Shown: positions 18,592-22,924, counted from the first letter of the stretch. The stretch is 56,268 nucleotides of DNA from Spirochaetales bacterium (GCA_022785155.1 JALFRH010000053.1:1-56268); one strand, 5' to 3'. Notes: generated by a model from the letters alone, not told the origin. Made by a program: numbers and translations.

Positions 18592-18664
18592 GCCAAAATA
18601 GCTCAGTTGGTAGAGCGACACCCTCGTAAAGTGTAGGTCAAGGGTTCGATTCCCTTTTTTGGCT
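18592..18664 (+). tRNA. tRNA-Thr (anticodon CGT)
   Basis: Cloverleaf read by hand: acceptor GCCAAAA/TTTTGGC, D-arm GCTC-AGTTGGTA-GAGC, anticodon loop CTCGTAA, T-arm AAGGG-TTCGATT-CCCTT. One C-A mismatch at the base of the anticodon stem. Confidence 0.9.
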
Positions 18665-18683: not shown

Positions 18684-18873
18684 TGTTGTTTTGAAAGTTA
18701 ACTGGTAATATTCCCTGAAAACCACGCAGAAAGGGTCCGTTTTGGGCCTTTTTTTATTATGGTTTTTTACAACTAAATTGGTAATATACAACCTTTGACA
18801 ACTTAACTGATAATATTCTTCTGCTAAAAACCTTGTTTTCCACTGCAACTATTTACAACTTAACTGGTAATAT
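18684..18873 (+). repeat. Four direct copies of a 22-bp motif (consensus TTTACAACTTAACTGGTAATAT)
   Basis: Copies at 18690-18711 (19/22), 18766-18787 (20/22), 18795-18816 (20/22) and 18852-18873 (22/22). Copy 1 carries an outward extension TGTTGTTTT (18684-18692) shared only with the inverted copy at 19454-19482. Confidence 0.85.
18731..18755 (+). terminator. Rho-independent terminator downstream of tRNA-Thr, lying between repeat copies 1 and 2
   Basis: AAGGGTCC-gtttt-GGGCCTT stem (two G-U pairs) followed by a T7 run. Confidence 0.55.
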
Positions 18874-19476
18874 CCGTTTTTCGTATCTTCTTGTAAGTAT
18901 TAGATGGTATTGAGAATGATAAATCAGGCTCCCGTAGGAGCCTTGGATATGTAGTGAAATGTCGTCATTTAAGAAGTTCCGGAGAGAACTCAACAAGCTT
19001 GATTTCAGTAGGGGATTCCGATATGGCGGTAGCAGGCTTTGCTGGAGTCTCCTTTTCCTAAAAATGCCGGACAACAAGAAGCTATCCGGCAATGAATTCA
19101 AAAGCAGCGGTTTTATGTTGGCTGTCAACCTGGCTATCCTTTCGGATAACTAAAGTCGCCGAAATCGTAAGTCCCCGGCGTGGACTCATCAGTTATCCCC
19201 GATGAGGGCTGGATACCCTTCCGAGCATCTAATTGTCTTGGTACTTACCCTGCCCAAGCGCAGTACAGCTTTTACGTGCCGCTACACGGAACATTCAAGT
19301 TCACAATTACTATACGGAAAAACAGACGCAAAGGCAATGTTTTTTATGAACTTGGACCAACCGGAACGAGATTTGTTAAATCGCCTGTAACGGACTTATA
19401 TTACCTGTTAAGTTTGGAAAAGATTATGGGATATGATCTGGATCGGTGGGGAGAATGTTACCAGTTAAGTTGTAAA
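18852..19476 (+). ncRNA. Candidate large structured RNA of about 625 nt; class unassigned and strand uncertain
   Basis: 18852-18873 can pair with 19455-19476 (21 Watson-Crick pairs plus 1 G-U). The core has no ORF with an RBS. It looks more G+C-rich than the flanking spacers (by eye) and is packed with hairpins, e.g. GGCTCC-cgta-GGAGCC at 18927-18942, GCCGGA-13 nt-TCCGGC at 19066-19090, GGATAACT..AGTTATCC at 19144-19197, CTCATC..GATGAG at 19185-19206, CTTGG..CCAAG at 19237-19258 and CGTG-ccgcta-CACG at 19275-19288. Confidence 0.4.
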
Positions 19477-19482
19477 ACAACA
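19398..19482 (-). repeat. Two inverted copies of the 22-bp motif
   Basis: Reverse complements of 19398-19419 (18/22) and 19456-19477 (21/22) match the consensus. 19454-19482 is a 25/29 inverted match to 18684-18712. Confidence 0.85.
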
Positions 19483-19587
19483 TCCGCTCTCTTTTTCTAT
19501 CTACTTATTCACCGGTTTACACGGAGAAATATTCAGATCCAGAAATAATTAGGGGGACTTTACTCTGTCAGTCAGTCGGATTATCCC

Positions 19588-19608
19588 TTTACTCTTAACA
19601 GTTAATAT
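19588..19608 (+). repeat. Degenerate direct copy of the 22-bp motif
   Basis: TTTACTCTTAACAGTTAATAT has one gap and several mismatches against the consensus. It lies outside the inverted pair. Confidence 0.45.
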
Positions 19609-19741: not shown

Positions 19742-19966
19742 ATGGAAGAGATTATTATCGACCTGTCTCAGGTTCCCATGACACAAGAAGATCTTGCCTC
19801 TCTAGAGGAGCTGATATCCAGGTCCAAGACTATGGGCCCTCAAATTGGTATTCCATGGAATGAAAAGGTATATGATTATATGTTTGAATCAGGAGCCTTT
19901 TTCGATCCAACTCTTTCTATTTTTGGTGACTACATTGAATGGGACCCGGAAGAAGATGATCTATGA
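19742..19966 (+). CDS. Small acidic hypothetical protein (74 aa), translationally coupled to tsaD
   Basis: AAGGGAGG RBS 5-6 nt upstream. Its stop overlaps the tsaD start (ATGA). Confidence 0.55.
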   Translation: MEEIIIDLSQVPMTQEDLASLEELISRSKTMGPQIGIPWNEKVYDYMFESGAFFDPTLSIFGDYIEWDPEEDDL

Positions 19967-21253: not shown

Positions 21254-22924
21254 ATGATTACAGCTTCCAACATTTCTCTTTCTTATGGTACACAAGTTCT
21301 TTTCAAGGAAGTAAACCTTAAATTTACTCCAGGTTTACCTGAAGTAAACCTTAAATTTACTCCAGGTAACTGCTACGGCATCATCGGTGCCAACGGTGCA
21401 GGTAAATCAACTTTCCTGAAGATTCTTTCAGGTGAAATCGAACCTGATTCAGGAGAGATTGTAATCACTCCCGGTGAAAGACTTGCTACATTGAAGCAGG
21501 ATCACTTCAAATATAATGATTATAGAGTAATCGACACTGTAATCATGGGTTTCAAACATCTCTATGACGTCATGCAGGAAAGAGATGCCATCTATTCCAA
21601 AGATGATTTCTCTGAAGAAGATGGATTGAGGGCTGCGGAGCTTGAAGGTGAGTTCAGTGAACTTGGTGGCTGGGAGGCTGAAGCGACAGCTGCACAGATG
21701 CTGGATGGTCTTGGAATCCCTGTAGCTCTTCATGAAAAGAAGATGAATGAAATCGAAGATAACCTGAAGGTAAGGGTACTTCTTGCCCAGGCACTCTTTG
21801 GAAATCCAGATATTCTTCTTTTGGACGAGCCTACCAACCACCTTGACCTTGAGTCCATCCATTGGCTTGAAGACTATCTTGAAGACTTCAACAATACTGT
21901 CATTGTTGTAAGCCATGACAGACACTTCTTGAATACTGTCTGCACCCATATCTGTGATATCGACTATGGCCGTATCCAGCTCTATGTAGGTAACTATGAC
22001 TTCTGGTATATGTCATCCCAGCTTGCTGCAAAGCAGATGAAGGATGAGAAGAAGAGAAGGGAAGAGAAGATTGCGGAACTTAAGGAGTTCATCCAGCGCT
22101 TCAGCTCCAACGTTGCAAAGGCAAAGCAGGCTACAAGCCGTAAGAAGCTTATTGATAAACTCACTATCGATGATATCAAGCCATCTTCACGCCGCTTCCC
22201 ATATGTTGCATTCAAGCCTAACAGGGAAATCGGAAAGAACGTTCTTGAGATAAAGAATCTTTCCAAGACCATTGAAGGTGAAAAGGTCATCGATAATCTC
22301 TCCATAACCATTAATCCTGGTGATAAAGTTGCTTTTGTAGGTCCCAACCACTATGCAAAGACAGTTCTTTTCCAGATCATCAGTGGTGAAATGGAACCGG
22401 ATGAAGGGTCATATACTTGGGGTGTAACCACTTCCCTCAGTTATTTCCCAAAAGATAACTCCAAGATGTTTGGTCCTGGCATAAACATGACGGAGTATCT
22501 CCAGCAGTTCAGCAAGGAGGATGATGACAACTATGTCAGATCTTTCCTGGGAAGAATGCTCTTTACAGGTGACGAGGCTTTGAAGGATTGTGGCGTCCTC
22601 AGTGGAGGAGAGAGGGTAAGAGTCGTTTTGGCCAAGATGATGCTTGAAGGAAACAACTGTCTTATTTTCGATGAGCCTACATCCCACTTGGATCTTGAAT
22701 CAATCCAGGCCCTTAACAATGGTCTTATTGATTTCAAAGGGGTTCTTCTCTTCAATTCCCATGACCATCAGTTTGTAGATTCTCTTGCAAACAGAATCAT
22801 CGAGTTCACTCCAAAAGGTATCATCGATAAGATGGAAAGATTCGATGACTACTTGGTTGACGAAGATGTAAAGGCAAAGAGAGACAAAGCTTACGAAGGA
22901 TATAAAGGAGCTGTTGTAATCTAA
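21254..22924 (+). CDS. ABC-F family ATPase (YbiT-like, two ABC domains, no TM domain)
   Basis: Two Walker A motifs (GANGAGKST, GPNHYAKT), two LSGG signatures and an inter-domain linker rich in K/E. It carries an 11-codon internal repeat just before Walker A. Confidence 0.9.
   Translation: MITASNISLSYGTQVLFKEVNLKFTPGLPEVNLKFTPGNCYGIIGANGAGKSTFLKILSGEIEPDSGEIVITPGERLATLKQDHFKYNDYRVIDTVIMGFKHLYDVMQERDAIYSKDDFSEEDGLRAAELEGEFSELGGWEAEATAAQMLDGLGIPVALHEKKMNEIEDNLKVRVLLAQALFGNPDILLLDEPTNHLDLESIHWLEDYLEDFNNTVIVVSHDRHFLNTVCTHICDIDYGRIQLYVGNYDFWYMSSQLAAKQMKDEKKRREEKIAELKEFIQRFSSNVAKAKQATSRKKLIDKLTIDDIKPSSRRFPYVAFKPNREIGKNVLEIKNLSKTIEGEKVIDNLSITINPGDKVAFVGPNHYAKTVLFQIISGEMEPDEGSYTWGVTTSLSYFPKDNSKMFGPGINMTEYLQQFSKEDDDNYVRSFLGRMLFTGDEALKDCGVLSGGERVRVVLAKMMLEGNNCLIFDEPTSHLDLESIQALNNGLIDFKGVLLFNSHDHQFVDSLANRIIEFTPKGIIDKMERFDDYLVDEDVKAKRDKAYEGYKGAVVI
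21308..21367 (+). repeat. Perfect 27-bp direct repeat with 33-bp period inside the ABC-F gene
   Basis: GAAGTAAACCTTAAATTTACTCCAGGT occurs at 21308-21334 and again at 21341-21367, separated by TTACCT. It encodes EVNLKFTPG-LP-EVNLKFTPG. Confidence 0.95.

Follow-up and report, generated by a model that had tools for sequence, protein, structure and literature searches.

Downstream of a tRNA-Thr gene in DNA from a Spirochaetales bacterium (GCA_022785155.1, contig JALFRH010000053.1), a 22-bp motif recurs in both orientations with no recombinase gene beside it. The question is what such repeats are: the ends of a mobile element, the binding sites of an integrase, or regulatory sequences. Here, we analyzed them within the whole 56,268-nucleotide stretch of DNA, referred to as the window, and compared the locus with its counterparts in other assemblies. 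See Table 1 for the coordinates of all features. The motif, TTTRMAACTTAACTGGTAATAT, is present in six strong copies within 18690–19476, four direct and two inverted. Scanning the entire 56-kb window with the 16-nt core ACTTAACTGGTAATAT, allowing up to three mismatches, gave seven matches, all inside 18696–19608 and located only in 18696–18873 or 19398–19608. Shuffled sequence is expected to yield 0.66 matches, and seven were reached in none of 100 shuffles. A weight matrix built from the motif copies scored six sites at 27–33 bits (plus strand at 18690, 18766, 18795, and 18852; minus strand at 19398 and 19455), with the next-best site in the window at 12 bits. A preliminary description of the locus had counted seven copies. 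The six strong ones stand, whereas the seventh is weak, with three mismatches, a 1-nt deletion, and an ungapped score below 12 bits, and lies 106 bp outside the right terminus of the element delimited below.

Table 1. Features of the repeat locus, with positions counted from the first nucleotide of the window.
Feature	Position	Strand	Basis
tRNA-Thr(CGT), attachment-site gene	18592..18664	+	ARAGORN, Rfam
Whole relic element, 799 bp, 5'-TGTTGTTT to AAACAACA-3'	18684..19482	.	Inverted repeat, homology breaks
Left terminus TGTTGTTT and outermost 22-bp site, L1	18684..18711	+	Repeat, weight matrix
Predicted hairpin with T-run between L1 and L2	18728..18754	+	Prediction; present in other copies
Site L2	18766..18787	+	Repeat, core scan, weight matrix
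Site L3	18795..18816	+	Repeat, core scan, weight matrix
Site L4, innermost left site, perfect consensus match	18852..18873	+	Repeat, core scan, weight matrix
Left-end interior, putative tnsC 3' untranslated region, with hairpin 18926–18943	18874..18964	-	Conserved
tnsC pseudogene stub, last 30 codons and stop	18965..19057	-	tblastn, transitive homology
Cargo, candidate structured non-coding RNA, ~320 nt	19060..19376	-	Fold z-score, terminator, conservation
Site R2, inner right site	19398..19419	-	Repeat, core scan, weight matrix
Outermost right site R1 and right terminus; reverse complement TGTTGTTTTACAACTTAACTGGTAACAT	19455..19482	-	Repeat, weight matrix, homology break
Degenerate copy 7, beyond the element	19588..19608	+	3 mismatches in 16 nt, <12 bits ungapped

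The sites are organized as two ends. The outermost pair is part of a longer inverted repeat (18684–18713 versus 19453–19482, 30 nt, 87% complementary) that encloses 799 bp, in agreement with the preliminary description. This outer repeat, 28–30 bp long, opens with 5'-TGTTGTTT, a segment that precedes the outermost site at each end and none of the inner sites. The terminal trinucleotides are TGT at 18684–18686 and ACA at 19480–19482, and TGTTGT termini are common to all other copies of the element. The layout is asymmetric: the left end carries four direct sites within 190 bp, and the right end carries two inverted ones within 85 bp. The inner left pair is spaced by 57 bp and the right pair by 57 bp (57–58 depending on the register), so the matching pair spacing noted earlier holds.

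We retrieved the same locus from other assemblies using the 74-aa protein encoded at 19742 in the window. Copies in other contexts were found by probing protein databases with translated spurious ORFs that cross the non-coding parts. These comparisons define the boundaries of the element. Homology to the left end in contigs L081–L090, L050, and L007 stops at the equivalent of position 18684, and the break always falls at TGTTGT. The left terminus meets at least four different flanks, namely three variants that follow tRNA-Thr, one that follows a tRNA-like gene, and that of L050. On the right, the module is 93% identical to contig L067 up to window position 19482, after which the two continue into unrelated host DNA. 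Three different flanks are seen at the right terminus, the third supplied by contig L083. The ends had been considered uncertain, in part on account of a terminator between copies 1 and 2; the homology breaks fix the termini at 18684 and 19482. The hairpin itself is real but belongs to the left end, where it is conserved, since L067, L081, L051, and L015 have it in their left ends too, and it casts no doubt on the boundaries. It would probably stop read-through from the tRNA gene.

The position of the element relative to the tRNA is nearly constant. As had been proposed, the insertion lies just 3' of a tRNA gene: the left terminus is 19 nt past the 3' end of tRNA-Thr(CGT) in the window copy and 19, 21, or 22 nt past it in the three flank variants. 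The same tRNA-Thr also precedes the element in L067, L084, L090, and L015. In the L081-type contigs, the left end begins 21 nt after a tRNA-like gene that adjoins an ABC transporter operon. The tRNA-proximal end is the left end in every copy. The tRNA-like gene, a second attachment site (L081 2956–3030, minus strand, also in L082–L089), is 75 nt long and has a good acceptor stem and T arm with an irregular anticodon arm. ARAGORN made no call for it, and Rfam gave a weak match of 20.8 bits to the tmRNA/tRNA clan.

Checking the flanks of the other copies revealed a perfect 5-bp target duplication in L067, which reads ACATT-TGTTGTTT...AAACAACA-ACATT. The window copy is flanked by TTTGT and TCCGC and has no target duplication, as the preliminary description had also found, and L083 has none either, so that one of the three two-ended copies carries it. 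The absent duplications would reflect later rearrangement at a hotspot struck more than once. An empty site would be expected to read tRNA-Thr, about 20 nt, and then TCCGCTCTC directly.

Taken with the interior, discussed below, these features lead us to a reading that we hold with considerable confidence: the motif copies are the TnsB-type sites of a Tn7-like transposon that inserted ~20 bp past tRNA-Thr(CGT) and has lost nearly all of its interior. The reading draws on the end architecture, the boundaries, the position and orientation at the target, and the L067 duplication described above, as well as on the tnsC homology and progressive decay described below. Tn7-like ends consist of arrays of TnsB sites, usually with TGT/ACA termini (PMC8649781, PMC9881144), although these termini are common rather than universal (PMC9881144). 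Arrays of TnsB sites, TGT/ACA, insertion downstream of a tRNA, and a target-adjacent left end are all features of the family (PMC8649781, PMC9881144, PMC10293859), and the homing pathway of a CAST reportedly inserts 30–33 nt after a tRNA-Leu gene (PMC10293859). In common with Tn7 and Tn7-like elements, the element described here has TGT...ACA termini in which an 8-bp terminal segment leads into a 22-bp site, and each of its ends holds several sites, arranged asymmetrically and spaced on the left. Also shared are an insertion that is oriented and lies a fixed short distance past a tRNA gene, a homolog of tnsC that reads toward the left end, defence-type cargo, and, in L067, a 5-bp duplication. 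The element differs in that no tnsA, tnsB, or tniQ survives, no duplication is present at the window copy, the left-end sites vary from one to five by strain, the host probably belongs to a gut spirochaete lineage, and we could assign the site sequence to no described element.

The arrangement of the sites could also be that of arm-type sites for a tyrosine integrase, with the two clusters marking attL and attR, the borders of an integrative island at tRNA-Thr. A tRNA does adjoin the sites, which are direct within each arm and inverted between the arms as in lambda-type attL/attR, and the content of the island varies between strains. However, no integrase gene turned up in any copy. The element begins 19–22 bp beyond the tRNA without duplicating the tRNA 3' end, no copy of that 3' end was found at the right junction, and no shared core overlaps the tRNA. 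Furthermore, the outermost site abuts the terminus. In contrast to lambda-type attachment sites, the termini are inverted repeats bearing TGT/ACA, L067 has a 5-bp duplication, and the neighboring gene is tnsC. We therefore consider this alternative, which the preliminary description had raised, extremely improbable. Other site-specific recombination systems were compared as well. The sequences ACTTAAC and GTTAAGT fit the RYYYAAC/GTTRRRY core of an integron attC, but the nearest correctly ordered pair is 524 bp apart and the close pairs are in the wrong order; an attC needs one hairpin-forming site of 57–141 bp. Compared by eye with their consensus sequences, dif/Xer and IHF sites are off in spacing or sequence.

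The repeats might instead serve as promoters or operators, either for the RNA in the center of the element or for the downstream operon of the 74-aa gene and tsaD. A TTGACA-like hexamer is found in each copy together with TGGTAATAT, a sequence similar to an extended -10 element, and copies 4 and 5 face the central RNA region. The spacer between the hexamers is 10 bp, though, which is too short for sigma-70, and a sigma-70 promoter was rejected for this reason. In addition, the body of the RNA occurs in contigs L070–L075 at 93–94% identity without any motif copy, the left array is found with entirely different interiors, and the number of copies in the left array ranges from 1 to 5 between strains. 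Repeats kept at fixed positions in orthologous loci would have pointed to operators or RNA helices; the tsaD loci orthologous to this one in related species lack the motif. A role as promoters or operators is therefore highly unlikely, and the Tn7-like reading is preferred. From the likeness of TGGTAATAT to an extended -10 element, the motif may have a secondary promoter role.

Next, we examined the interior for traces of transposition genes. Inward of the left end, all copies contain the 3' terminal part of a minus-strand ORF. An ORF of this group, 82–143 aa long, had no Pfam or PHROG match alone, and it became interpretable because of a longer member of its cluster, P0065 (308 aa). P0065 opens with a Walker B-like LIIDEIQ motif, and its residues 1–47 match Pfam TniB (E = 2e-4). 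A direct PDB search with P0065 gave no TnsC match; the link goes via full-length intermediates. Among 1.8 billion representative proteins, the homologs of P0065 are 518–561 aa long and align with it from about residue 240 to the end. All seven full-length homologs tested passed the Pfam cut-offs for TniB and AAA_22. P0090, the closest (E = 1e-53, 43% identity), aligns with the Tn7 TnsC structures 8glu and 7mbw over ~230 residues with E = 1e-16, and a plasmid homolog sits in a tnsA-tnsB-tnsC...tnsE operon. No relatives of P0090 were found in viral contigs. In the window, tblastn aligned positions 18968–19057 with the C-terminus of P0065 at 26 of 30 identical residues (87%, E = 4e-10). From this chain of homology, which is transitive rather than direct, the window stub is therefore judged to be the end of a tnsC gene reading toward the left end. 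The tns genes of Tn7 likewise read from the right end toward the left. The stub is 30, 68, 139–162, or 192 codons long in different copies, and such graded lengths are the pattern expected for progressive decay.

Several other DDE transposon families combine subterminal sites with an AAA+ helper, and a Mu-like, Tn5053/Tn402-like, Tn552-like, or IS21-like origin has to be weighed against a Tn7-like one. These families have in common TG/CA termini, multiple repeats at the ends, and an ATPase of the TniB family, the direct Pfam match of P0065 is to TniB itself, and tnsA and tniQ were not found. Pointing the other way are the length of the homologs and the alignment of P0090 with Tn7 TnsC, and IstB_IS21 matched neither P0065 nor the full-length homologs. 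Tn5053-type elements target res sites, which counts against an origin of that type here. Moreover, insertion in one orientation at a fixed ~20 bp downstream of tRNA genes is the behavior of Tn7-like elements (PMC10293859, PMC9881144). We consider an origin in one of these other families very unlikely. Accordingly, of the two types of transposon end named in the preliminary description, Tn7-like and Mu-like, the former is favored by the exact breaks at the termini, the duplication in L067, and the tnsC remnant in the left end.

No tnsA, tnsB, or tniQ/tnsD was found in the element, the window, or any retrieved copy. In the window, 26 of the 34 ORFs with a length of 230 aa or more were searched against Pfam; for the sister contigs, we used precomputed Pfam matches for homologous genes within 10 kb of the locus. 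Because these three genes are missing, we file the element as a relic derived from the family and not as a functional member of it. This agrees with the earlier view of a non-autonomous relic, as no transposase or integrase was found among the window ORFs examined. The window copy is a deletion relic that does not move by itself, and it keeps both termini, six sites, the tnsC stub, and ~320 nt of RNA-like cargo. It resembles deletion derivatives and solo ends of Tn7-like elements in that both ends are kept, the genes are lost, and the attachment site is that of the family. It differs from the deletion derivatives as a single-locus relic that shows no sign of having multiplied or been mobilized in trans. 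For Tn7-like elements, additional or orphan ends close to attachment sites have been reported (PMC8649781). A MITE or mobilizable mini-transposon was rejected, as there is a single copy in the window, with no duplication, and the scans of genomes, viral contigs, and JGI metagenomes described below gave only chance or LRR-coding matches and one solo end.

We also searched for further copies, as the preliminary description had suggested. Sister copies turned up in related contigs, but no autonomous copy bearing a transposase did. No second copy of the element was found in the 56-kb window. A search of 185,579 species genomes with a 19-mer of the motif returned 17 matches, which is about the chance level, and the only related one was L015. 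A scan of JGI metagenomes for the motif and interior gave no match, and the scan of viral contigs and a two-site pattern searched in JGI data matched only coding repeats of LRR proteins. BLASTN of 18684–19608 against phages and plasmids found nothing. As the motif is nearly absent from these genomes and metagenomes, no autonomous relative with these ends was seen.

By analogy with the family, the 22-mers would be TnsB binding sites. TnsB of the intact ancestor would occupy the four left sites and two to four right sites and would cut at the TGT/ACA termini. A target selector, either a protein or a guide recognizing the tRNA region, would recruit TnsC, an AAA+ ATPase that would direct insertion with a 5-bp duplication. 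The interior would subsequently have been lost through deletion and recombination between the repeated sites, and recombination between repeats would likewise change the number of sites. Target immunity is known from Tn7, and the retained ends might block new insertions in the same way.

The interval between the tRNA and the 74-aa gene is highly variable between strains. Left-end sites number 1, 2, 3, 4, or 5 per strain, with whole units gained or lost (L001–L010, L051–L054, L067, and L081–L090). Some strains (L002, L009) lack window 18945–19579. L001, L051, and L053 retain the left array plus the adjoining ~200 bp (window 18857–19056), followed by ~2.9 kb of different DNA without inverted sites, which rejoins the window sequence at 19607. 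Since the locus differs in this manner between strains, the 799-bp unit is one variant of many and not a uniform small element. L067 has tRNA-Thr, four direct sites, a 2.3-kb interior, four inverted sites, and a different downstream gene, and L083 contains a ~7-kb copy with both ends present. The left-end interior (18874–18964) is 88–93% identical in L001, L015, L050, L067, and L083. L015, from a Candidatus Ornithospirochaeta genome, holds a solo left-end fragment after tRNA-Thr. This fragment is 92% identical to the window, and the two tRNAs are just 82% identical, which indicates horizontal spread. The L081-type copies have two sites just 20 bp apart at the terminus. Degenerate copy 7 is kept in all strain variants, including L002, and it lies no more than ~20 bp from the junctions where the L001-type replacement and the L002-type deletion meet the window sequence. 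This copy is possibly a trace of an older insertion, or a product of chance.

The cargo also differs by copy and includes fragments of type I restriction-modification systems, a PBECR4 toxin, DUF4357, an LRR lipoprotein, and the candidate RNA of the window copy. Defence cargo is typical of Tn7-like elements (PMC8649781). The candidate RNA segment (19060–19376) is GC-richer, and its fold z-score is -4.15 on the minus strand versus -2.0 on the plus strand. A predicted intrinsic terminator on the minus strand (19091–19065) ends the segment. Rfam assigned no family to 18874–19397 at gathering or E-value thresholds, and the seven available sequences, which vary too little, contain no compensatory pairs. 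A hammerhead ribozyme was rejected: although the RNA contains CUGAUGA, stem II is not followed by GAAA and there is no Rfam match. In L067, the segment is 97% identical, with other DNA between it and both ends, and the motif-free contigs show that the module also exists apart from the element. The RNA had been described as possibly the only cargo. This does not hold, because the 30-codon tnsC stub is present as well. Read most simply, the RNA is a piece of defence cargo.

In one of the motif-free contigs, a 1448-aa cas9 gene lies immediately upstream of the RNA module (L070 83–365, 93% identical) and on its strand, and the module is set among sgRNA-like repeats of 110 nt. The RuvC and HNH catalytic motifs of this Cas9 are intact. 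The RNA modules of L070–L075 are flanked by direct repeats of ~70–110 nt with GCTTTGGNGGTGTGYT and a long hairpin. This hairpin resembles a fused repeat/anti-repeat and has a weak, sub-threshold Rfam match to RAGATH-18 (E = 0.35). A functional link between the element family and a Cas9-associated RNA seems very doubtful to us. If it were real, either the intact ancestor found tRNA genes by means of that RNA and Cas9 or the mini-element is still mobilized in trans and so spreads a guide-like RNA, and in both cases it would be a type II CRISPR-linked Tn7-like system. To our knowledge, no type II CRISPR-linked Tn7-like system has been described, and the cas9-linked RNA module is the part of this locus most deserving of separate study.

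In general, a cluster of repeats beside a tRNA with no recombinase of its own could here be assigned to a specific transposon family, because the strains could be compared and a 30-codon stub could be traced by transitive homology. No new mechanism is involved; the element adds a case to a well-known class of mobile elements. What it brings to light is a Tn7-like lineage, with a tRNA-Thr attachment hotspot, in hosts that the one named relative and the sample types suggest to be uncultured gut spirochaetes, along with a decay series at that hotspot consisting of one to five left-end sites, graded tnsC stubs, and fragments of defence-type cargo. The repeats are thereby spared misannotation as operators, CRISPR-like arrays, or a novel element.

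The surroundings of the locus show some further variation. In one strain, L003, an IS200-type Y1 transposase gene (PF01797, 5403–5870) takes the place of tctB within tctCBA, an operon that lies upstream of the locus. In L059, from a related species whose 74-aa protein is 74% identical, the region upstream of the 74-aa/tsaD operon (57–2222) contains a serine resolvase gene as well as an ORF of 344 aa whose product has a zinc ribbon of the IS1595 type. Because of this resolvase and the IS1595-type ORF, that side of the operon is a landing site for other mobile elements too. The 74-aa ORF itself (window 19742–19966) has a strong ribosome-binding site and shares 4 nt (ATGA) with the beginning of tsaD. 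It belongs to no Pfam or PHROG family, and its homologs are 60–80% identical and keep their position in related species. Further downstream, the ABC-F ATPase ORF (window 21254–22924) encodes 556 aa here versus 545 aa in ten other strains, and its translation contains a tandem in-frame duplication (EVNLKFTPG occurs twice) just ahead of the first Walker A motif.
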